DNA from: Candidatus Dojkabacteria bacterium
GTDB taxonomy: Bacteria > Patescibacteriota > Dojkabacteria > B142 > OLB20
Assembly (NCBI GenBank): GCA_035444565.1
Contig: DAOMOX010000001.1
Location: forward strand, 130,335-194,334
Direction of reading: 5' to 3'
DNA length: 64,000 nucleotides
The translations under genes and the position numbers were made by a program. The notes under the pieces are model-generated. The model had not been told where the DNA came from and searched no databases. It saw only the letters and a list, made by a program, of their open reading frames with translations. Positions 3,074-64,000 of the stretch are shown in pieces; positions within the stretch are counted from its first letter, which is position 1, and each line of letters begins with the position of its first letter.

Positions 3074-5527
3074 ATGATGCCAGAAGGAGAATACATCACA
3101 CCAAATCAACCCAATGAAGGAATTGGGTCGATACCTGCGCTTGAAAACCCTGCAATTCCTCCTACCAGCAATACTTTACAGTCAAGGGGTCAGTTTTTAG
3201 GTTTTGATGCTCTCAGAAATCTTGCCCAAGCAAAAAGGGATCAGATTCACGGTAATATTGACTCTCCTATTACATCAGAAGAAAATCTTAATTATGTCCA
3301 CGAATTTAACCGAGGTCTACTCAGACTAATCCCTACATGGGTAAAAGCTCCAATTATCGCTGCTGGACTTATAGCAAGCTATCCAAAAGACGAATTAATG
3401 AATCGAAGAAAATTCCTAAAGGTCGGTGGGTTTATTACTGCTGTCGGCACATTCCTTGCTGGCTGTGGTGGTGAACCTGGGACAGGCACATTAAACCTAA
3501 CAAGTTCAGGAGAATACGTTAGCAGCTCAGAGGACGAGATAGACGGATTAGCGTTGCTTGAAAAAGAAAGCTGGACTGCGGATGAGTTATTACAGTACCT
3601 ACAGTTTGCAGGTATTGGTGGAGTGTTGAGCTACACTGCTGCTGACGCAGTATTAACTAGTAATCCTCGAAATGACGTAATAAGTGCCCTACGTGCTGCC
3701 ATTGATGCAGGAGAAAATCTTAACTACAGAGTAGCTATACTCGATTTATTTGATGCCGTAGACAATACGATGCCTGAAGCATCACAGAGCATTGTCAACA
3801 CTCAAGAATTAGCTAAACCGGAACAATTCAGATCTTTAGGATTAACCAATCCTGATGGATCGATACCTCAAAGTTGGGCAGAAGTAAAATTCAACAGAGC
3901 TATAACCGGGGAAGTTACAGACACCAGATTTGGCGGTAGAACTATGGAATATATCTCTTCTGGAGAAATAATAGAAGGTTTTGATATTACAAAACCAGAT
4001 AGTAAAGTAACATTTCTTGGTGAGACTAGAAGTTCAAAAAATGTCGCAATTAGAATCCAAGACAGTACAGGACAAACCGCTGAAGTACTAGCCCAAAGAA
4101 ATGTAATGTTCCCTAATTTCAATAAAGACAGAGGTTATAGACTTATTACTCCTGATGGAACAGCACAAAAGATATTTACACATTTAGAGGCAAGACACCC
4201 AATAAGTATGACCGATGTATCAAATTTTATGGGAGGTATAGGACCGAATGCTGAGGTAGACTATTTGATTAAGTGTGCCGGAGAACGAGGTCCAGTGGTC
4301 ATGGGAGTTAGGACTTTACATGATAATAGAGTACATGATGTAGTATTCAAAATGGATCCAAGAATTAATCAATTATTGGCAGAAGATAAAATTGATGACG
4401 TTATAGAGTACGCAAGAGCACTTCCTGAAGACCGAATCATTACCGCATATGATTCTTTCGATAGAATAAATGGTTTAAGCGATGAAGTACTTGAAGTACA
4501 CAAACGTTATAGGAATGTTTTTAGTCTACAAAAGAATACTATGGTGTATGAAACACTACCTAATGGTGATTATCTAAGACTACCATCTAGAGGACCCGGC
4601 ATTATAAGATGGGCAGCTCAATTGGGAAAACTCACGAGAGGAAATCCTAGGATGGGTCAAAAAATTGGAAAAGTTTTAGAAGTTATTTCAAAGAATCGAC
4701 CGAAACTTAAAGCAACTGCTTCTGTAGTAGGTGCAGTACTTGAAGTACTTGCTATAGAAACTGCAAAGGTTGCACTTGATGTATATGAAGCTGGGACTAC
4801 ATATGATCGTTTAAACGAACGCGCGAATCTTTACAATGAATTCGGCACAGGAGATGGACCAATTGCGCCTTATTCACTTGATAGATATAAACAAAACTTT
4901 ACTCTAACAACAACTCCTTCTACTTTTGCTGATGCTAATGGACAAATAGTCACTGGTAAAGCAGCAATACTACCTCCCCTAAAAGGCTTACCAACTAGTG
5001 AAGGCGCAACGCTTGCAGGAATCACGTTTGAAAGAGTAAAACCTACCAACGAGATTCCAGAAGATGCAAGTCTGCTAGATTTGAGTACACTAAAAACACA
5101 GATTGAACTAAATCAAATAAGAATGGGAGTTGCAAACCATCCCTTTAATAGAGGAATTGAAAGCCTTAACTTTTTGTACGCAAGGCAAAATACGTATAAT
5201 GAACCCTATCAAATTGGTTTCCCAGCATTGCCAACTGAATATGGAGAATTGCCAAAGAGAATCGGAATATTTTTAGATGGGGAAGTCATGAAATTTTGCA
5301 CTGTTGATTATGCCAATGAAACTGGATTAGGTGAAAACCTTGGGACAGAGTTTGCGTACCCTGTAGAAGTCACACACCCAAGAGATTTAGTAGCATATTA
5401 TGGCTCATACCAGGAAACACTAAAACATATAACAGCAGCTGATATTGATGGCAGAAGTGGGAATTTTGTTGTAAAATATAGTATAATTAATAATAATCAA
5501 GTTAATATTCAAGTTACACCAGCTTAA
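3074..5527 (+). CDS. Large secreted lipoprotein of unknown function. A Tat-type signal with a lipobox (MNRRKFLKVGG...LAGCGG) sits at residues ~109-133, so an alternative start at 3398 is possible.
   Basis: Twin-arginine motif RRKFLK, hydrophobic core, LAGC lipobox. No recognisable catalytic domain. Confidence 0.5.
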   Translation: MMPEGEYITPNQPNEGIGSIPALENPAIPPTSNTLQSRGQFLGFDALRNLAQAKRDQIHGNIDSPITSEENLNYVHEFNRGLLRLIPTWVKAPIIAAGLIASYPKDELMNRRKFLKVGGFITAVGTFLAGCGGEPGTGTLNLTSSGEYVSSSEDEIDGLALLEKESWTADELLQYLQFAGIGGVLSYTAADAVLTSNPRNDVISALRAAIDAGENLNYRVAILDLFDAVDNTMPEASQSIVNTQELAKPEQFRSLGLTNPDGSIPQSWAEVKFNRAITGEVTDTRFGGRTMEYISSGEIIEGFDITKPDSKVTFLGETRSSKNVAIRIQDSTGQTAEVLAQRNVMFPNFNKDRGYRLITPDGTAQKIFTHLEARHPISMTDVSNFMGGIGPNAEVDYLIKCAGERGPVVMGVRTLHDNRVHDVVFKMDPRINQLLAEDKIDDVIEYARALPEDRIITAYDSFDRINGLSDEVLEVHKRYRNVFSLQKNTMVYETLPNGDYLRLPSRGPGIIRWAAQLGKLTRGNPRMGQKIGKVLEVISKNRPKLKATASVVGAVLEVLAIETAKVALDVYEAGTTYDRLNERANLYNEFGTGDGPIAPYSLDRYKQNFTLTTTPSTFADANGQIVTGKAAILPPLKGLPTSEGATLAGITFERVKPTNEIPEDASLLDLSTLKTQIELNQIRMGVANHPFNRGIESLNFLYARQNTYNEPYQIGFPALPTEYGELPKRIGIFLDGEVMKFCTVDYANETGLGENLGTEFAYPVEVTHPRDLVAYYGSYQETLKHITAADIDGRSGNFVVKYSIINNNQVNIQVTPA

Positions 5528-32849: not shown

Positions 32850-33261
32850 GGTATTTCATTAATAAAGTATTACTTTATAGTAGACGTAGTGGTCAGAGGA
32901 ATCAATCAATTCGTATCAAAGTCGAGGTTATTATTAGTTTAATTTATTTGATGGAAGAGATAGTATATAAAAGAATATAGTAGAAACTTAAATTTTTACA
33001 AAATTCAACAGATGGAAGGTGCGCCAAGAATAGTCATCATAGAGAATCCAAAAGAGAAGTATGGTGTAGTAGGTGAAGAAATAGCACCGGGAATATATGT
33101 TGTAGTTCCAGTTGATGATCCTTATGCACAAGAAGGCACTTATGATTATCAAGGCGCCGAAAAAAGTCACCATTGGGTACATGAGCCAGAACAGGAGGAT
33201 CAATTTCCAACAGCAAATCCTACTTAAGGAAAATATTTCAACTATATAAAAAACCAATAAA

Positions 33262-33334
33262 TGCGCTGAGCAAGATTCGAACTTGCAACCTACTGCTTAG
33301 AAGGCAGTTGCTCTATCCATTGAGCTATCAGCGC
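33262..33334 (-). tRNA. tRNA-Arg (anticodon UCU). 73 nt, no encoded CCA.
   Basis: Clean cloverleaf: GCGCTGA/TCAGCGC acceptor, GCTC/GAGC D-stem, ACTGC-CTTCTAA-GCAGT anticodon arm, GCAAG-TTCGAAT-CTTGC T-arm. Confidence 0.85.
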
Positions 33335-33351
33335 ATTTATTGCTTTTGTAT

Positions 33352-33504: not shown

Positions 33505-33788
33505 ATCAACTAGAAAATCAGACTTTCATGAACATAGTGAAGTGAAAGGCTAGATTTTCTGTTGTCCCGTACGAACAAAGTGAGATACGGGACCTCTCTT
33601 TATCAGTATGCTATTTTCAAAACATCAGCATTATACCGCTGAATGCTCTCTATTATAATGTTTTTCCCTATTTTTTTCATCTTTTTTCACGGATTCTAAT
33701 ATTTTGCGTTAGAATCCAAAGTTGTCTAAGTGGACAAACAATATAATCACACCAATGCTCTACTCTTTATACATTTTATATAGAGCAT

Positions 33789-56835: not shown

Positions 56836-58311
56836 ATGCAGAAAATAGTTATCATCATTGTTGTATTACCATTAATATTCCTAGTGTATTCGAGAGAATT
56901 GATAAATACAAAAGCTCAATCGACTGAAGATATTAACACAAGTGTTGCCCCAGGAACTGAGTGGCAAAACGTACCAGGGAATGCTCTATACAATACTGAA
57001 GAGTTCTCAGTGATGCAATTTGAAGCTAAATATGACTGTACTGGAGATGGCCTTGGTGATACAGCAGAAGCTTGCGGTGCTGTTGCGAATTCTGGTTTCG
57101 GTTTGGATCATCGGGACATCATTTCTTTTGATCCTGACAAAGTTGTTTCAACTGCAGAAGGTGCTCCAATTGTACACATCAGTCTCAATCAAGCAGAGAA
57201 TGCTTGTCCTGCAGGGACATATTTGATAAAAAATGATGAATGGATGACAATTACTCGAAACGCAGAACTTCAGTCTGCAAACTGGATTGACGATGTTGTG
57301 GGTTCTACAATTACAGGATTAGGAGGATTAAAAAGAGGTAATGTTTGCGTTATAGATGGAGTTAGTTATGATGGTGAAAATCCTGAATACGGAACATCTC
57401 GAGATGAAAAATCTAAAATTATATTATCGAATGGAACTGAAATATGGGATTTGTCTGGGAATGTGTGGGAACATCTTCGCATAGACGATGCTGATAGTGT
57501 GATACCTCGTGTAAATATGCCGACTTTAAGCACTACTGCTGATGATGGAACTTCTGGAGGTTGGGGAGAATTCACAGACATCGACGGTTATGGCATGCTT
57601 TCTTACGACATCATAAGACCCTTGGATTCATCATATAATTCAACTCATGGGGTTGGACGGATCTGAATATTTGGTGATGATGAAGTATCCGCTGGTTTGA
57701 GAATTGCATTACGTGGAGGTTCATGGACAAGCTTAATCGATGGTGGTATTTTCACAATGAGTCTAAGTGTGGCTGATGTAGGAAGCAACGAAGATATTGG
57801 CTATCGCTGTGCTGGTCCTGCAATTGTTTACCCTACAAATACCCTTACCCCTACATTAGTTCCAACAAACACGCCCCAACCTACTGTGACACCAACTCCA
57901 GTAATAGATATGAGGATTACAAATATTAACGCTATCTACATATTAACTAATGTCTTTACATATTATTACCCTTACAACAACAATATTAAATTTAAAGGGA
58001 TAACACACCCATTGGCATTTGTGAAGATTACAGTTAATTCTGAACCTAAGATTTGCGAAACTACTGCAGACGCAGAAGGGAACTTCGAATGTACATTCTC
58101 ATATATTGAGAATGGTTTGCATACAGTGACAATAGTAGCAACAACTACTGATGAACAGGTCATAACTTATCCTCAAATTACATTAGGGATTAACATGAGT
58201 TTGGTGCCAACTGGCAATGGTTCTCTCATCTCAGTAATAGTTGGAGCCATTATTTTTATATTTGGTATACTAATTACTCGGTTTAAATCACCACGTCTTA
58301 ATTACAAATGA
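56836..58311 (+). pseudogene. FGE/SUMF1-domain (sulfatase-modifying-factor-like) protein interrupted by an in-frame TGA at 57664-57666. Listed as ORFs 56836..57666 and 57697..58311.
   Basis: GNVWEH before the stop and RGGSW after it are the two hallmark FGE-sulfatase motifs. Both pieces share a frame. The C terminus has a T/P linker and a TM. Confidence 0.45.
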
Positions 58312-58784
58312 CCTTCCTATCACATGCACTCGTTGGGGCTTCAATCGGAGTTGCGTTATCAAATATCACTGGAGTAGATTCAAATTTAACAGTTCCATTG
58401 AATATTGGACTTTCATTGCTTCCGGACATTAATTTAATCTGGAGGAAGATTTCCGACCACCATAATGATATTACACATTACCCATTTCTCTGGGTGGTAT
58501 TAGCAACAATTGTGTGGTATTTAGAGCCTGCGACACATATATATTCTATGTCGATTTTATTGTCTGGATTATTCCATCTCATTTTAGATACTTTTGGGAT
58601 GAATGTAGGTGTTCATTGGCTCGCGCCCTTCCATTCAAAAGAGTTTTCGTTTACTAAAATACATCCACAACCCAAACAAAAGTCTGTGAAATCAAAGATC
58701 AATCAATTCCATAATTCAAAACATAGTTACATCGAACTTATTACGATTTTGGCAAGTACCTTTGTAATCTGGGCATTATTTTAG
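58308..58784 (+). CDS. Membrane-bound metal-dependent hydrolase (DUF457/YdjM-like).
   Basis: SHALVGASIGVAL and HLILDTFG match His-rich motifs in TM helices. Confidence 0.45.
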   Translation: MTFLSHALVGASIGVALSNITGVDSNLTVPLNIGLSLLPDINLIWRKISDHHNDITHYPFLWVVLATIVWYLEPATHIYSMSILLSGLFHLILDTFGMNVGVHWLAPFHSKEFSFTKIHPQPKQKSVKSKINQFHNSKHSYIELITILASTFVIWALF

Positions 58785-59363
58785 TAACTCGTCTAGTTCT
58801 TCGACTTTATCGATAATGGCTAAGGGTTTGGCTTCTCCTAAAATTTCTCTAGAGTGCAATCCCCAAGTAACCCCTATTGCATCAATATTGAGTTTCCTGG
58901 CTTCATTTATATCTCCAACTGTGTCAGTCACAAATATACAATCTTCCGGCTTTGCATCATATTTGTCCATTATCATTTGTAGTTTCTCCACCTTGCTTGG
59001 ATTTATGTGTACATCATAAATATCATCAATAAACTCACTAATTCTTTTCTCAGACAGAAAATTTTCAATTCCCTCTCTAGGAGAACTACTACAAATCACA
59101 ATTGTTCTGTCATTGTATTTTTTCAGGAAATCATACAAAGGGTAAAACTCAGTCTCTACTACTCTTTTGTTATACATATCAAAATATATTGGATAATGTT
59201 CCTTCTCATATCTAATAGCTGGTTTTAACATGGGATTAGATTTCCCATGATCAATATGGTCTTGTTCTGTTACATCGGGGAAAAATTTCCGTGACAATTC
59301 AAGGTGAAGTTGCATAGTATTTGCAAGGACACCGTCGAAATCGAATATTATTACTTTTTTCAT
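58776..59363 (-). CDS. HAD-IA hydrolase (phosphatase).
   Basis: IIFDFDGVLANT motif I. Confidence 0.6.
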   Translation of the reverse strand: MKKVIIFDFDGVLANTMQLHLELSRKFFPDVTEQDHIDHGKSNPMLKPAIRYEKEHYPIYFDMYNKRVVETEFYPLYDFLKKYNDRTIVICSSSPREGIENFLSEKRISEFIDDIYDVHINPSKVEKLQMIMDKYDAKPEDCIFVTDTVGDINEARKLNIDAIGVTWGLHSREILGEAKPLAIIDKVEELDELLK

Positions 59364-59608
59364 ATTATAATGACTGATTATAAATCTCTAAGATGCCTGA
59401 GTACATATTTCTCAAGAGTCTGTCTAACCTCAATATCAGGAATTTCTTTTATTTTCTTCTTTAGAGTCTGAACTTCACTCACATCTTCAAGCTCCTTTAG
59501 AATTTTAGCACCTTGCTTAGATAAAATTGATTTGTCAGTCAGAACTCGCGCTATATCTACGCCTTCTTTTATATATGTATTTAAGGCTGTGTTTTGGTCT
59601 AATTTTCG

Positions 59609-60154
59609 TTACTTCGGAAGGCTCAACAATCCTTTAATCACAACTTTCTTTGTCTCATCTTTATTAAATACTACATTTAAATATGTCTCTGCGCCATATT
59701 TTGATTTTGAGATGTATTTCAAATGCGGTAATAAATCTTCCTTATAATAAGCTCTTTGCCCAGTGAGATTTGAGAATATCTTATGTATTGGTTTAACTTC
59801 CAAAATCCCCATCACCACTCTGTAGTTGCTATTTAATATTGGCTTCAATAAAGTTTCAATATGTTCGATCGTTAGATTTGTAAAATCCGCATCCAGGAAT
59901 AGAATAATATCCCCTTTGGCTTTTTTAATTCCCTCTGCCATTGCATTCCCTTTGCCTTGATTTAGATGGATATCGATAATTTGAATCTTATTTTTGAAAT
60001 TATTAATTTCTTCAAGAGTGTTGTCAGTTGAGCCATCATTAATACAAATTACCTCATCAACTTTGGGAGATTTCAATATCACCTCTAATACTGTAGTGAT
60101 TGTCTTTTCCTCATTATATGCAGGAACGATTGCGCTAATAAAGTGTTTTGACAT
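59609..60154 (-). CDS. GT2 glycosyltransferase (dolichyl/polyprenyl-phosphate sugar synthase-like).
   Basis: ISAIVPAYNEE, INDGSTDNT and FLDADF (DxD) motifs. Confidence 0.6.
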   Translation of the reverse strand: MSKHFISAIVPAYNEEKTITTVLEVILKSPKVDEVICINDGSTDNTLEEINNFKNKIQIIDIHLNQGKGNAMAEGIKKAKGDIILFLDADFTNLTIEHIETLLKPILNSNYRVVMGILEVKPIHKIFSNLTGQRAYYKEDLLPHLKYISKSKYGAETYLNVVFNKDETKKVVIKGLLSLPK

Positions 60155-60237
60155 ATAGATTAGATTAATTAGTGGGAAAGTATAGCATGTGATGAGAAGG
60201 GGTGGAATGTTTCCGATTTAGTCACAAAGCGGGACCG

Positions 60238-60489
60238 ACGGGACTCGAACCCGCAACCTCACGCGCTTGCCCCGTAAGAATTTATTCTGTACGGGGTGAC
60301 AGATAAATAATGTTTACAGGAAAAATGAGAATACGGACAACCATAGACAAAAAAGCGGGACCGACGGGACTCGAACCCGCAACCTCACGCGCTTGCCCCG
60401 TAAGAATTTATTCTGTACGGGGTGACAGATAAATAATGTTTACAGGAAAAATGAGAATACGGACAACCATAGACAAAAAAGCGGGACCG
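60238..60489 (-). repeat. Two tandem 126-nt units. Each is an 89-nt spacer carrying a CCCCGTA...TACGGGG hairpin plus a 37-nt copy of the tRNA-Asp 3' half.
   Basis: 60238-60363 and 60364-60489 are identical. The 37-nt segment equals tRNA-Asp positions 38-74. In tRNA sense the spacer ends CTGTCA-[31-nt hairpin]-C then GCGTG. Confidence 0.8.
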
Positions 60490-60490
60490 A

Positions 60491-60564
60491 CGGGACTCGA
60501 ACCCGCAACCTCACGCGTGACAGGCGTGTGCTCTAACCAGTTGAGCTACAATCCCGCTTTTTTG
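60491..60564 (-). tRNA. tRNA-Asp (anticodon GUC). 74 nt including discriminator G, no encoded CCA.
   Basis: GGGATTG/CGGTCCC acceptor, TA, GCTC-AACTGGTTA-GAGC, CACGC-CTGTCAC-GCGTG, GCGGG-TTCGAGT-CCCGT. Confidence 0.85.
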
Positions 60565-60796
60565 TCTATTCAATTATGAAGAACAATAAAGTCTAATACC
60601 CAAATAAACGAGAGCTATTTATCCTCCGTAGTTTTACGAAGGAGGACAATCCCGCTTTGTGACTATTGACGACTTGTATAGAACGGATAGATTATAGCAG
60701 AATTTGGAGAAAAATATTAAGAGATTGAGAAATTTAGAAACGAAGTAACTCTTTAAGAGAACCTAAGAAATTATTTCTAATTATTAAAATTATTAA

Positions 60797-61164
60797 TGCC
60801 GCGGAGAGCCCAGGATTTAATCCGGGGGAATCCCGTACAAACTTCATTTCACTCGTTTTACGGGACAAGCCTCAAAGGGATTTCTCTCCCGCTAAACTTC
60901 GTTAGCGGGACAAGCCACCACCACCTTTGAAGAGATTAACTAAGTTGCTGCTGCGGAGAGGAGTTTTACTAGTAGTTGATGAACGTAGTGAATCTACTAC
61001 TAGTTATCCCTGCATATATCAGATTCCATTTAACTTTGTCAGGGAGAACCTCAAGTATCCTTAGCTAGTTGAATGATAAATGCTGCGGAGAGCCCCGGAT
61101 CTAATCCGGGGGAACCTCAATCATAATGTTCCCACCACCACCTCAATAAAGATAAACAAGTTGC
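60797..61164 (-). repeat. Three degenerate tandem tRNA-Leu-derived units (pseudo-tRNA fragments) with hairpin insertions.
   Basis: Each unit begins (T)TGCTGC(T)GCGGAGAG, like the tRNA-Leu 3' end. They retain AAGGGATTTCTC and CCACCACCACCT blocks homologous to the intact gene. Confidence 0.5.
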
Positions 61165-61248
61165 TGCTGAGGACAGGAGTTGAACCTGCAAGGGATTTCT
61201 CCCACTACCACCTCAAGGTAGCGTGTCTACCAATTTCACCACCCCAGC
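61165..61248 (-). tRNA. tRNA-Leu (anticodon GAG), class II with a long variable arm. 84 nt.
   Basis: GCTGGGGTGGTGAAATTGGTAGACACGCTACCTTGAGGTGGTAG...GCAGGTTCAACTCCTGTCCTCAGCA is close to E. coli tRNA-Leu architecture. Confidence 0.85.
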
Positions 61249-61371
61249 AGCAATTTGTTTATCCTATCGATTTTATTTACCCTTTGTAGCTTAAACGAAG
61301 AAAGGCCACCACAGCATTTAGTGCTTTAGACAACACCTATTTTATCAAATAATGTGGGAATTCGTTACTAT

Positions 61372-63060
61372 TTACTTCTTCTTCGTCAAATAGTACTCTA
61401 ACCTCTTACCGAAAAGTAGTCGAGTGTGGGCTTCGATACCAGGAAGGAAGACGATGAAAAAGGTGATGTATGGGAGGAAAACCCATTCGAGTAAAGTCAG
61501 AATCGTTTTCAAGAAACCTTTTCGATCACTTTTCGGCTTTACAAAGTAATAATCGGTGAGGATAAGTCCAATTAAAAACCAAACTGTAATTTGTATTATG
61601 AATCCTGAGACAGTTGGTAACCTACTCCCAAGAACAGTTCCGGCAAACTGGGGATTGATGAGATATGGTAAGTTTCCGCCTAGTACTAATATGAACGTAA
61701 CAACAACTCCAACAATATGATCGAAGAAGACATGAAGTGCCACATAAGCAGCTCTAAGTGAAATTTTGCCTTTTAAAGTAAGCTTGGCGACTTGCGAAAG
61801 CATCCAACCATCAATTGTTACACCCCATATCCAACGTCTTTGTTGAAAATAGTTATTCTTAATAGTTTCGGTGTGAGTTGAACCTTCGGCAGCATCTGAC
61901 ATTGTCTTCAGAAACAGAGGTACTGTGGAGACCTTGTTGGGAAATTTGAATAAACTTTTAAAGAAGATATGAAAGTCTTCTGGCGTAATCCAAGGTGTCC
62001 AGTATCCAATCTGGTCAATTAACCAGAATGACGCGGTGTAAGTTGAAAAAGGTACTAATTTATCTGGTCTCAACTGACCAGTCATGTTATATAGACTTGA
62101 GATAGAGTTTTTCACTCTAGCGTAGAACTTCAGTCTCCAGATATTAGAATAGAAAATGATAGCTCCAGTATAGAATTTGTAATGGGCGTCTTCTCGTAAT
62201 GAATATTCATATGATAATTTAGCAAAATGCTGCTTGTGGATAAGCGAATCAGCATCACAGCTCGTCATTGTAGTTTTTTTCATATCCCAACCGAGTTCTT
62301 TTATTTTTTCGACAGCAAACTTTCCCGCCCAAGCCATATTTGATGATTTCCCAATAATCTCATCATCTTGCATAACATGGCTACTAACCCAGAAATTTTC
62401 GAAATTGTCTCCGAATTCCTCTTTTAAACGATATGACTTCTGAATTCCTTCTTCATCCCGGGCTTCAGCTGCCATTAATACTGTGATTTGCTTCGTTGGA
62501 AAAGTAGACGCGCTAATTGCACGAACTGTGTCAGCTAGAACTTCGTAAGGTTCTTTCCAATGAGGAACCATGATAATATGGTGCAAATCTCGAGTATCGT
62601 TATGAATTCCCTGCTCTCTTAAAATCTCTAGATTTTCAATCTCTTTATTAATAAATCTTTCGGTTTTTCGTTTTTCAATTATGAATGCATACCTATCCAG
62701 GAACTTCGGAATTCTTTTGTTTTTGTGGAGCTTTTCTTTTTGGGATTCAAAAGTTGTATTTTGCACATCTACTAGTTCCAGTTTCAACCTCTCTATACCT
62801 GCTTCTGGATTGTGCAGATCGACAATCTTTTTCATCCAATCAATACCTTCTGTTGTACGAATTTTGATAACTGCCAAAGCTACCAAAATGAAATAGCTTA
62901 TAGATTTGTACAAAAAGTACACATTGAAAATAATAACTGCGTAAGCTGTGAAAACTGGAGCCGTCAAAGCTCCCAAGACTGGGCTAATTATTACTAGTAA
63001 AACTACTAAGGAAGGAATCTTTTCAATGAGTTTTTCACGTCTTGTGATTATTCGAGACAT
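61372..63060 (-). CDS. Processive family-2 membrane glycosyltransferase (cellulose/chitin-synthase-like).
   Basis: QQRRW (the QxxRW motif). N- and C-terminal TM bundles flank the cytosolic GT domain. Confidence 0.65.
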   Translation of the reverse strand: MSRIITRREKLIEKIPSLVVLLVIISPVLGALTAPVFTAYAVIIFNVYFLYKSISYFILVALAVIKIRTTEGIDWMKKIVDLHNPEAGIERLKLELVDVQNTTFESQKEKLHKNKRIPKFLDRYAFIIEKRKTERFINKEIENLEILREQGIHNDTRDLHHIIMVPHWKEPYEVLADTVRAISASTFPTKQITVLMAAEARDEEGIQKSYRLKEEFGDNFENFWVSSHVMQDDEIIGKSSNMAWAGKFAVEKIKELGWDMKKTTMTSCDADSLIHKQHFAKLSYEYSLREDAHYKFYTGAIIFYSNIWRLKFYARVKNSISSLYNMTGQLRPDKLVPFSTYTASFWLIDQIGYWTPWITPEDFHIFFKSLFKFPNKVSTVPLFLKTMSDAAEGSTHTETIKNNYFQQRRWIWGVTIDGWMLSQVAKLTLKGKISLRAAYVALHVFFDHIVGVVVTFILVLGGNLPYLINPQFAGTVLGSRLPTVSGFIIQITVWFLIGLILTDYYFVKPKSDRKGFLKTILTLLEWVFLPYITFFIVFLPGIEAHTRLLFGKRLEYYLTKKK

Positions 63061-64000
63061 TAGAAAATATTAAAAACAGCGTCCTGATAATCTATTACAA
63101 TCTTGTCCCAAAGGTAATTATGTGCAAGTTCGTAATTATTTTTCGAGAACTTATTTATCATTTTGGCATCTTTTGAAAGAAGTTCCAAATGCTTTGTAAG
63201 TGTTTTTACATCTTCGAAATCATAGAGCAATCCGTTATCTTTGTTTTTAATCAAAAACTTTCCACCCTCAGTTCTGGTTGACACTACTGCGCATTTCTTT
63301 GCCATTGCTTCCAAAATGCTTATTCCAAAAGCTTCCCAACGACTTGGCATTACAAATATTTTACTTGCGGTCAGTATCTCATCTCGGGTAATATCACTGG
63401 GGTTTTCTAGGAAAACCACATATTTCTCGACTTCTAGATTTTTTACAAGCGTTTTCAAATGCATCAAATATCCTCCCTCTCGTCCCATTGCAACAAATCT
63501 GATAGTCGGCTTAGTCTTGGCAAGCTTCGGTAATGCTTTAATCACCTGTTGGATACCTTTGTATTCTTCGAACCTGCCAGTGTATGAAATTATGAATCTT
63601 CGATTTAAGCCATAATCAGTTAATGCTCGGCTTGTCTTTATGGTCCTCAATGTGACTTCATTGATACCATTTGGTAAATATTTAATTTTCTCTTCATCGA
63701 TTCCGTAAGCTTTTATCCATCTATATTGATCAGGATTAACCTGAATAACCAATCTGTATAATCGATTTAAGAACAATCTTTGATTAAAAATATATAACTT
63801 TTTGAGTAAAATCTTAATTAATGAATAGTTCCCATGTGCCATAAATGGTCCATGTGGAGTATTTATCATCTTAGTTTTTCGATGGACGATTTTCTTAAGA
63901 ATCAAAAACAGATCCTGCCAATAAAAACCAAATCCATGAACATGAATCAAATTTGCTTTACTCCTCAAAAGTCCGAATAACATCCCTGGATAGAATCCCA
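63060..64000 (-). CDS. GT4 glycosyltransferase. The 5' end runs off the window edge (first Met at 63983, frame open beyond it).
   Basis: C-terminal GT4 region EAFGISILEAMAKKCAVVST. No in-frame stop between 63983 and 64000. Confidence 0.55.
   Translation of the reverse strand, partial: GFYPGMLFGLLRSKANLIHVHGFGFYWQDLFLILKKIVHRKTKMINTPHGPFMAHGNYSLIKILLKKLYIFNQRLFLNRLYRLVIQVNPDQYRWIKAYGIDEEKIKYLPNGINEVTLRTIKTSRALTDYGLNRRFIISYTGRFEEYKGIQQVIKALPKLAKTKPTIRFVAMGREGGYLMHLKTLVKNLEVEKYVVFLENPSDITRDEILTASKIFVMPSRWEAFGISILEAMAKKCAVVSTRTEGGKFLIKNKDNGLLYDFEDVKTLTKHLELLSKDAKMINKFSKNNYELAHNYLWDKIVIDYQDAVFNIF

Follow-up and report, generated by a model that had tools for sequence, protein, structure and literature searches.

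The locus described here surrounds the only functional tRNA-Asp(GUC) gene found in a 64,000-nt stretch of DNA (hereafter, the window) from a Candidatus Dojkabacteria bacterium (assembly GCA_035444565.1, contig DAOMOX010000001.1, positions 130,335 to 194,334 of the forward strand). Partial copies of this gene, several hairpins and nested inverted repeats lie on both sides of it. The window also encodes TypA, a PhoR-like kinase, GlnA and PurB, a gene content that marks it as bacterial. tRNA genes were called with ARAGORN and with Infernal using the Rfam tRNA model, and tandem repeats with Tandem Repeats Finder. ARAGORN reported three tRNA genes in the window, all of them on the minus strand: Arg(TCT) at 33261-33335, Asp(GTC) at 60481-60555 and Leu(GAG) at 61163-61249; the Rfam model concurs on the Leu and Asp genes. 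The intact tRNA-Asp (60481-60555, minus strand) scored 68.2 bits (E = 9e-14) in Infernal, which returned exactly one tRNA-Asp between 58000 and 64000 and placed all non-tRNA families there below their gathering scores. An initial annotation of this DNA, made by reading the letters, had described an intact tRNA-Asp followed by exact tandem units, and both parts of this description were borne out, by the single tRNA-Asp of ARAGORN and Infernal and by a tandem repeat of period 126. The features of the array are confirmed not to be due to chance.

In tRNA sense, the intact gene is followed by two exact copies of a 126-nt unit (repeat D1), copy 1 at 60352-60477 and copy 2 at 60226-60351, both on the minus strand. 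Tandem Repeats Finder reported them as 2.3 copies of period 126 with 100% matches and a score of 584 at 60226-60517. Each unit contains, in order, the trailer GCTTTTTTGTCTAT, a 45-nt spacer, CTGTCA, a hairpin followed by CAAG, and tRNA nucleotides 38-73, and the last copy is followed by GCTTTGTGACTA; of this anatomy the initial annotation had given CTGTCA, the hairpin, CAAG and the 3' half. The tRNA 3' part itself is found as three exact 40-nt copies (repeat D2) at 60226-60265, 60352-60391 and 60478-60517. The dead 3' halves, nucleotides 38-73, lie at 60356-60391 (copy 1, with its CTGTCA remnant at 60423-60428) and at 60230-60265 (copy 2, remnant at 60297-60302), again on the minus strand. Neither ARAGORN nor the tRNA covariance model called a tRNA in these dead 3' halves, and the units do not have the make-up of a functional tRNA, as CATTATTTAT precedes CTGTCA instead of the 5' strand of the anticodon stem.

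Between tRNA positions 37 and 38 of each dead copy lies a 31-nt palindrome, CTTGCCCCGTAAGAATTTATTCTGTACGGGG. Copy 1 (60392-60422, plus strand) was recognized as a clean insertion relative to the intact gene, and copy 2 (60266-60296, plus strand) is the same insert. In tRNA sense the hairpin reads CCCCGTA-cagaataaattct-TACGGGG and is followed by CAAG. On the plus strand the insertion junction is CACGCG/CTTGCCCCGTA...TACGGGG/TGACAG, where the intact gene reads CACGCG/TGACAG. The insert mimics an intron because it is placed exactly between positions 37 and 38.

The 5' side of the intact gene is equally layered. Directly upstream is an inner leader L', ATAGACAAAAAAGC (60556-60569, minus strand, from the table of leader/trailer pairs), which pairs with the inner trailer R', GCTTTTTTGTCTAT (60469-60482, minus strand), and so extends the acceptor stem by 14 bp; the corresponding inverted repeat (I3) is 18 nt long and 100% complementary. 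L' forms the last 14 nt of a stretch of about 67 nt (60556-60622, minus strand), regarded below as the remnant of a cassette carrying a GIY-YIG gene. This remnant follows a hairpin, hp1 (CCTCCTTCGTAAAACTACGGAGG; 60623-60645, minus strand), which in turn follows a 5' stub, GGGATTGT (60646-60653, minus strand; repeat D10), equal to tRNA-Asp nucleotides 1-8. Together with the AAAGC that precedes it, the stub belongs to a 13-nt piece, AAAGCGGGATTGT (60646-60658), which is an exact copy of the leader and first 8 nt of the intact gene. Next comes an outer leader L, TAGTCACAAAGC (60654-60665, minus strand), the right arm of a 16-nt inverted repeat (I4) whose left arm is the outer trailer R, GCTTTGTGACTA (60219-60230, minus strand). 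A repeat search showed the outer inverted repeat to be perfect over 16 nt (60219-60234 against 60650-60665), for which the chance expectation in about 450 nt is roughly 2e-5 by our own estimate. The inverted repeat that the initial annotation saw bracketing the array is therefore real, but its left arm is at 60219-60234 and not at 60228-60244; the earlier coordinates were 9 nt too far to the right, and an array start at 60228 cuts the arm. Upstream of the whole array is a promoter-like site (60691-60720, minus strand) with TTAATA, an 18-nt spacer and TG-TATAAT, scoring 10/12 in a consensus scan and having the extended TG.

Related loci were collected by several routes. Exact-protein look-ups led to the same locus in the metagenome-assembled genome (MAG) GCA_035444845.1 (loci L001 and L003) and in short-read contigs; GCA_035444845.1 (locus L001) represents the same species in another assembly. 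Scanning a genome collection with the 3' end of the tRNA gave matches confined to Patescibacteria, including the close relatives L007 (Candidatus Dojkabacteria) and L014, and a metagenome scan with the tRNA 5' half gave a single additional locus, L016. Homologues of the adjacent 562-aa protein, which bear Dojkabacteria/WS6 names, supplied L017, L019, L021, L023 and L052-L056 at 99-67% identity. The 562-aa protein of L052 is 99% identical to that of the window and fully identical to that of L053. The tRNA-Asp sequence itself is unchanged in seven relatives, among them L007, L014, L016, L017, L052 and L056.

Ten related Dojkabacteria loci account for the parts of the array, the outer inverted repeat among them. 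The promoter-site stretch CTGCTATAATCTATCCGTTCT is identical in L007, L014, L016, L017, L021 and L052. In L021 the conserved promoter is followed without interruption by TAGTCACAAAGC, an unsplit tRNA-Asp and CTTTGTGAC, and in L017, too, the outer leader directly abuts an unsplit tRNA-Asp. The outer trailer follows the unsplit gene in L021 and a decayed 3' half in L016 and L017, and is absent in L007, L014 and L052. Since leader and trailer flank an unsplit tRNA-Asp in L021, the two arms seen in the window are the separated ends of an older form of the gene. By this comparison the outer inverted repeat is an ancestral tRNA-Asp leader/trailer pair and no special bracket, and the pairing of the array ends over about 16 bp, taken initially as a possible sign of a split tRNA, is the ordinary leader/trailer pairing of an unsplit gene. 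The single clean tRNA-Asp that one might look for in relatives is found in L021 in part, as an unsplit gene with the old leader and trailer, yet this locus carries a dead copy as well.

Pairing of this kind is widespread in the clade. Leader/trailer pairing adds 7-14 bp to the acceptor stem at most functional tRNAs of the window and of closer relatives. The paired sequences differ and co-vary (AGACAAAAAAGC/GCTTTTTTGTCT, AGTCACAAAGC/GCTTTGTGAC and GTCGCAAAGC/GCTTTGCGAC, with several others at tRNA-Leu), and their differences between genes and lineages are compensatory (window 33253-33343, 60469-60569 and 61151-61263, and relatives). No such pairing was seen at either gene of L017, at the tRNA-Leu of L021 or of L054, anywhere in L023, or at the five other candidate phyla radiation (CPR) loci examined. 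The duplex suggests an unusual requirement in precursor processing or termination.

The origin of the 5' stub is indicated by L052, where an identical leader, stub GGGATTGT and hp1 are followed by an intact 89-aa open reading frame (ORF). The stop codon of this ORF, TAG, is formed by tRNA nucleotides 8-10, and its product, ending in ...AGTCACAAAGCGGGATTGTAG within the tRNA, matches the Pfam GIY-YIG domain (E = 2e-15) and resembles the UPF0213 structures 1zg2 and 1ywl, with no further domain (PDB sequence match and Pfam). An ORF 82% identical is found at the same position in L057 and L058; hp1 precedes the intact ORFs, 85-89 aa in length, of L052, L057 and L058 and marks the left end of the cassette. 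In L054 an ORF of 81 aa and 42% identity occupies the same position and also ends in the tRNA (Pfam GIY-YIG, E = 5e-18). It is preceded by a 48-nt tRNA-like stub with a different anticodon arm, which reads TTC; over its first 27 nt this stub, taken together with its 13-nt leader, repeats the start of the intact gene almost exactly, for 40 nt in all. The ORF coordinates are 5542-5811 in L052, 8691-8936 in L054 and 2001-2258 in L057 and L058.

At this site the GIY-YIG domain ORF is present in L052, L054, L057 and L058; the window retains only an internally deleted remnant, consisting of the 5' untranslated part and the last 12 or so codons, the end of which matches the C-terminal ORF codons of L052, L054 and L057. 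The distance from the promoter motif to tRNA nucleotide 25 is 398 nt in L052 and 171-172 nt in the window (171 nt), L053, L014, L007 and L016, and what these short-form loci all retain is the untranslated beginning and the final codons of the ORF. At the empty sites of L017 and L021, which are free of a stub, it is 74-75 nt; the stub is missing from L056 also. The ORF is present in L052 and gone in L053 despite their identical 562-aa neighbours, a presence/absence polymorphism at one site. These comparisons show the cassette to be an insertion/deletion polymorphism that regenerates the 5' end of the tRNA. That the nuclease mobilizes the cassette is what we infer from this arrangement. Two more distant homologues of the protein were also located, one about 90 nt downstream of a tRNA-Ala and the other beside a reverse-transcriptase locus (diversity-generating retroelement-like) with no tRNA. 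Because one of the two is without a tRNA, the GIY-YIG/tRNA link is clade-specific, and a general association of the GIY-YIG family with tRNA was rejected on the settings of these two homologues.

Two side observations concern the same gene. As the stop codon of the ORF is formed by tRNA-Asp nucleotides 8-10, RNase P, in processing a co-transcript, would strip the stop codon, a possible means of linking nuclease expression to the maturation of the tRNA. In L006 (4253-4324, minus strand; tblastn E = 0.055) a fragment of a GIY-YIG pseudogene, interrupted by an in-frame stop, is located about 150 nt upstream of the Daviesbacteria tRNA-Asp and hints that the GIY-YIG/tRNA association predates Dojkabacteria.

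On the 3' side, the relatives record repeated formation and loss. The intergenic region of L001 equals that of the window minus one 126-nt unit (copy 1 in our numbering), and the contigs of L004, L005, L057 and L058 end within the repeated 3' half. Because L001 is one unit shorter and short-read contigs break in the repeat, the two-copy state is either polymorphic and recent or assembly-dependent. Exact head-to-tail copies, 40-nt repeats at the unit boundaries and a copy number that varies (where collapse in assembly is possible) are all found here, and unequal recombination between the 40-nt repeats, or slippage, would be expected to yield the two-copy state. The dead copy of L007 ends after CGCGTGAGG and is followed by an inserted gene for a 274-aa UMPH-1-like protein; those of L014 and L052 end after CGCGTGAGGTTGC, with unrelated genes next. 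In L016 and L017 the dead copies have point changes, and a different hairpin replaces the T arm. In L056 a further array of 3' halves, spaced at 111 nt and 94% identical, has arisen independently. Because 3' halves repeatedly form and decay across relatives, they point to a hotspot and not to a function, and, as judged from these alignments, they are not conserved, unlike the intact tRNA.

An element of about 60 nt with two hairpins, starting with CCA right after the discriminator base of tRNA-Asp, was observed in two relatives (L017 7993-8060 and 8185-8252; L021 9394-9580). In L017 it follows the 3' ends of both the live and the dead copy, in L021 it is repeated three times in tandem, and it effectively supplies the gene with an encoded CCA.

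The 31-nt insert belongs to a family of palindromes with the signature CTTG-YCCCG...CGGGR and a length of 28-39 nt, of which a survey of 162 kb of Dojkabacteria sequence gave 17 copies of about five types. None of the 17 is farther than 433 nt from a tRNA gene, while sequence within 600 nt of a tRNA makes up 14.8% of those 162 kb. In the window, CCCGTA...TACGGG was observed 4 times against 0.01 expected. Two further inserts interrupt tRNA-Leu relics, CTTGTCCCGCTA...TAGCGGGA (60914-60887) and CTTGTCCCGTA...TACGGGA (60869-60831), each clean relative to uninterrupted paralogous sequence, and a fourth family hairpin lies upstream of tRNA-Arg (33561-33592). Filled and empty sites could be compared at Asp 37/38, Leu GAGG/TTCC and Leu TGG/GAGA, these being paralogous copies and not orthologous alleles. 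No target duplication was present at the three insertion sites, CTTG is one-sided, and no transposase was found among the ORFs scanned. For the one-sided CTTG, targeting of CTTG/GTTC in the manner of IS91 may be a lead. Other family hairpins occupy the variable arm, the junction of variable arm and T stem, and the D stem of dead tRNA pieces, and members occur on both strands relative to tRNAs. Because this orientation varies, the insert acts on DNA and not on RNA. The Asp insert is decayed in L016 and L017. The 31-nt 'intron' is, by its junctions and its family, a clean insertion of a palindromic DNA element.

Many members of the family carry the loop motif CGAACGAAGTGAG, which is also found with co-varying stems in unrelated viral contigs. 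In a more general form, CGA(A/G)C(G/A)AAG(T/C)GAG, the motif is common to many hairpins with unrelated stems (window 33572, 60850 and 60985; L014, L016, L017 and L021; viral loci L024-L050). The 18-mer AACGAACGAAGTGAGTTT occurs in 27 IMG/VR contigs representing about 12 independent contexts, several of which we read as having complementary flanking arms. The loop motif matched no Rfam family, and a literature search for the motif string returned nothing relevant. IMG/VR contained no exact match to the hairpin or to the tRNA 5' half, and one unrelated match to hp1, and a phage or element origin of the unit was accordingly set aside. Junctions at the locus and in its relatives recur at A^CGCG: the Asp 37/38 insert (60391/60392 and 60265/60266) lies within ACGCGT, the tRNA-Leu stubs of L016, L017, L052 and L055 have a D-stem hairpin inserted at CAGA^CGCGCC, and the duplication junction of L056 (3764) is at ^CGCGTGAGG. 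A^CGCG is a possible preferred site of breakage or insertion.

Taken together, these comparisons favour, with a probability of about 0.68, the reading that the locus is passive, non-functional debris left by mobile-element and recombination activity around one working tRNA-Asp. The comparison of loci shows an older form of the gene, of which the 16-nt inverted repeat was the leader and trailer. A cassette consisting of the hairpin and an ORF of 85-89 aa for a GIY-YIG protein, running into tRNA nucleotides 1-10, would then have been inserted at the 5' end of the gene, supplying a replacement leader and 5' end and displacing the old leader and nucleotides 1-8 upstream as the stub; in this genome an internal deletion of the ORF would have left the remnant of about 67 nt after the hairpin. 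For this step the insertion/deletion polymorphism was seen directly, and the part of the nuclease in moving the cassette is presumed. A second, dead 3' part with the old trailer may go back to an older duplication that began in the anticodon loop and reached the 3' end; either a tandem duplication or the entry of a foreign allele could have produced it. Comparison further shows that the clade-specific 31-nt element CTTG-YCCCG...CGGGR entered this dead copy between nucleotides 37 and 38, and points to a very recent doubling of the 126-nt unit, in which the two 40-nt copies of the 3' half recombined unequally or slipped. A single cassette event creating both the 5' stub and the 3' half was set aside, as L054 has the cassette and a stub without a dead 3' half; L017 and L056, which have dead 3' halves and no stub, contradict it as well.

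Several points weigh against this reading. The similarity between the spacer and the downstream flank is no better than that of shuffled sequences in local alignment (p = 0.2-0.95), so that a plain tandem duplication, with the spacer as a diverged copy of the flank, is unsupported, though conceivable. The dead copy of L021, which ends in an encoded CCA, comes behind the old trailer, and this does not match one linear history. The dead 3' halves of the window are perfect and those of relatives damaged, probably through gene conversion or the duplication itself. With regard to the cassette, the GIY-YIG protein consists of the catalytic domain only, without a DNA-binding domain, and site-specific DNA cutting or self-spread by it is hypothetical. 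Its distant homologues are not always adjacent to a tRNA; L062 has no tRNA nearby. The intact tRNA inside the cassette would also carry any target within the tRNA, an awkward point for simple homing. Finally, the hairpin stem of L021 shows two compensatory pair changes and a conserved loop, which could mean that the hairpin is kept for a reason; the palindrome may be either self-maintaining or weakly selected.

The reading that comes next, although unlikely, is that an element with a tyrosine or serine recombinase entered the 3' half of tRNA-Asp once or repeatedly, restored the gene by means of the 3' half that it carried and was later lost, leaving attachment-site (att) direct repeats. Integrations that target tRNA genes leave direct repeats reaching from the anticodon loop to the 3' end, and the three exact 40-nt copies are direct repeats of the 3' portion. 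The genes beside the dead 3' half vary as they would after integration (the 274-aa UMPH-1-like gene in L007, unrelated genes in L014 and L052), L021 and L023 carry additional genes between tRNA-Leu and tRNA-Asp, and the encoded CCA of the dead copy in L021, missing from the resident gene, suggests a foreign source. However, no integrase, recombinase or excisionase was found among the window ORFs near the tRNAs or in the flanking genes of 12 related loci (precomputed Pfam marks and Pfam scans), although several genes inserted in relatives had no Pfam match. The integrase that the initial annotation thought might lie near the locus was likewise not seen in these scans. In addition, the repeats are separated by 87 nt only, exact searches of IMG/VR matched neither spacer nor hairpin, and integration leaves the 5' stub unexplained, whereas comparison derives it from the GIY-YIG cassette. 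It is possible that a scar of this kind applies to the 3' side only. Of the earlier proposals, the remnant of a tRNA-targeting element came closest: on the 5' side such an element is found, in the form of the GIY-YIG cassette, but no island with a tyrosine integrase.

Readings in which the array works as RNA are less probable still. It is quite improbable that the array is a functional RNA, transcribed as one piece from the promoter and closed by an outer stem of 16-19 bp, with its 3' halves and hairpins processed into decoys, regulators or tRNA-like fragments or serving as signals for tRNA processing or termination. The conserved promoter-like site upstream of the stub, the predicted fold of the 466-nt transcript, which closes the outer stem (minimum free energy -168.8 kcal/mol, z = -8.0), the two compensatory changes in the hairpin stem relative to L021 and the leader/trailer pairing maintained at functional tRNAs of the clade all agree with it. 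Yet much of the folding energy is contributed by the tRNA, the repeated T arms and the palindromes; relatives mutate, replace or truncate the 3' half and hairpin while the tRNA is unchanged; the outer trailer partner is missing in L007, L014 and L052; and the number of units varies within the species. A search of 58000-64000, four related loci and seven viral loci against Rfam (E ≤ 1) returned tRNAs and noise only, the best of it YrlA, whose 23.7 bits (threshold 69) came from the T arm. It is very improbable that a former tRNA-Asp had the 31 nt as a genuine RNA intron at 37/38, or that the pieces are joined in trans. The hairpin-forming insert does stand at the canonical 37/38 position, and tRNA-Asp introns exist in Patescibacteria (PMC13011429); the anticodon-loop insert of about 200 nt at 35/36 in L008 (Daviesbacteria) is an example. 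Those introns, however, stand at 35/36 and are group I ribozymes (PMC13011429), in contrast to a 31-nt hairpin at 37/38. No non-tRNA Rfam family reached its gathering score, related hairpins occur at other tRNA positions and in the opposite orientation, and among the loci examined no intact gene bears such an insert. A bulge-helix-bulge intron at 37/38 was rejected, as there is no 5' exon, the insert is not strand-specific, and it is decayed in L016 and L017; similarly, a group I intron was rejected on the size of the insert, 31 nt against a core of about 200 nt, and on the lack of any Rfam intron match in 58000-64000 (E ≤ 1). The intron of the initial annotation accordingly falls on the occurrence of the palindromes in both orientations and inside other dead tRNA pieces, and its split or trans-spliced tRNA on the length of the sole 5' piece, 8 nt where a 5' half gene would be expected to contain nucleotides 1-37, and on the pairing flanks, which are those of an ordinary leader and trailer. 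The debris reading is preferred to all of these.

Apart from tRNA-Asp, similar structures were observed at the other tRNA genes of the window. The tRNA-Leu(GAG) locus (61322-60790, minus strand) is nested in the same way, with a 5' stub, GCTGTGGTGGCC (61315-61304), and a hairpin resembling hp1, as judged by eye (61305-61281), followed by the intact gene with its own leader/trailer pairing of about 14-22 nt and by three dead 3' parts. This nested structure was also found in L016, L017, L052 and L055, with two nested stubs in L017, and L007, L021 and L023 have an unsplit tRNA-Leu at the position of the stub. Upstream of the intact tRNA-Arg(TCT) there is a dead middle fragment of tRNA-Arg (window 33600-33340, minus strand), consisting of TTAGAGCAACTGCCTTCT and AAGCAGTAGGT with about 124 nt of highly structured sequence inserted between them at the anticodon. 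A family-2 glycosyltransferase gene adjoining the array (59381-60154, minus strand) is interrupted in frame by a stop at codon 182 of its 258. Its frame beyond the stop is intact and 87% identical to the gene of L017, and the same 181-aa call was made in assemblies L001 and L002.

The nearest known counterpart of the cassette is found in T-even phages. SegB of the T4/T6 tRNA cluster is a free-standing GIY-YIG homing endonuclease that cuts within tRNA genes (PMC13096335, citing Brok-Volchanskaya et al. 2008). In T6 the 3' end of the nuclease gene shares microhomology with a tRNA 5' end, and this, along with homologous recombination, gives rise to tandem units that contain tRNA sequence (PMC13096335). 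In both systems a GIY-YIG gene is directly beside a tRNA gene; in Dojkabacteria the end of the ORF overlaps the tRNA 5' end, a copy of that end lies upstream, and tandem repeats of tRNA sequence adjoin. In contrast to SegB, the Dojkabacteria protein of 85-89 aa contains a UPF0213-type catalytic domain only and gave no Seg-type match in the scans, and its cassette is in a bacterial chromosome and not in a phage; its cleavage and homing are hypothetical. No dosage benefit is expected here because the amplified unit holds a dead 3' half and not a full tRNA.

Prophages, genomic islands and tycheposons that target tRNA genes leave partial tRNA direct repeats. The present locus shares with them repeats of the 3' portion that set in near the anticodon loop, a functional gene that has been restored, the displacement of an old end and neighbour genes that vary among strains. 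It differs in that no integrase or element body was found here, the repeats are about 125 nt apart, and the 5' end is displaced as well, in connection with a nuclease cassette and not a recombinase. Among small palindromic inserts, repetitive extragenic palindromic (REP) elements, Rickettsia palindromic elements and the GC-cluster or double-hairpin elements of mitochondria are found in reduced or organellar genomes. The Dojkabacteria family resembles these in its short (28-39 nt), non-coding hairpins with clean boundaries and several diverged copies, but has a one-sided CTTG/GTTG and no target duplication and was seen only in or beside tRNA-derived DNA. Of the marks of REP elements or miniature inverted-repeat transposable elements (MITEs), filled and empty sites and diverged copies were found, and terminal inverted repeats with target duplication or a transposase were not; we know of no transposase associated with the family. 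The group I introns of Patescibacteria tRNA-Asp and tRNA-Asn are self-splicing, stand at position 35/36 and occur in the only copy of the gene (PMC13011429). They share the phylum, the tRNA and the anticodon-loop insertion with the present case, which is instead a 31-nt palindrome at 37/38 of a 5'-truncated dead copy and matches no intron model. The tRNA-Asp of L008 (Daviesbacteria MAG JACPZA010000010, about 4620-4890, reverse-complemented) is broken after CTGT by about 200 nt and was missed by ARAGORN; this insert fits the Patescibacteria group I introns at 35/36 (PMC13011429).

A broader proposal can be put forward tentatively, and we hold it to be doubtful: Dojkabacteria may carry a tiny selfish cassette, in which a domain-only GIY-YIG gene overlapping a tRNA 5' end invades the resident tRNA, while a separate, undescribed family of 28-39-nt palindromes homes to tRNA-derived DNA and the leader/trailer duplex constrains which rearrangements survive. 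If this were true, the cassette would bring a new leader and 5' end, or a whole tRNA with matched leader and trailer, and each invasion would leave nested stubs such as those at tRNA-Asp and tRNA-Leu.

What is new at this locus is modest, namely the cassette in which a GIY-YIG gene and a tRNA overlap and the tRNA-associated hairpin family; the rest is of known kinds. For annotation, the locus illustrates that comparison with sister strains can resolve an 'intron-like' tRNA fragment in a genome known from metagenomes only. Annotators of Patescibacteria, a phylum with real tRNA introns, may take it as a caution that such pieces need be neither introns nor split genes. The leader/trailer duplex at most functional tRNAs and the hairpin family limited to tRNA neighbourhoods are clade-specific features of interest. 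A GIY-YIG gene with its stop inside a tRNA, gained or lost between near-identical strains, extends the association of nuclease and tRNA seen with SegB of T-even phages to a reduced bacterial chromosome.

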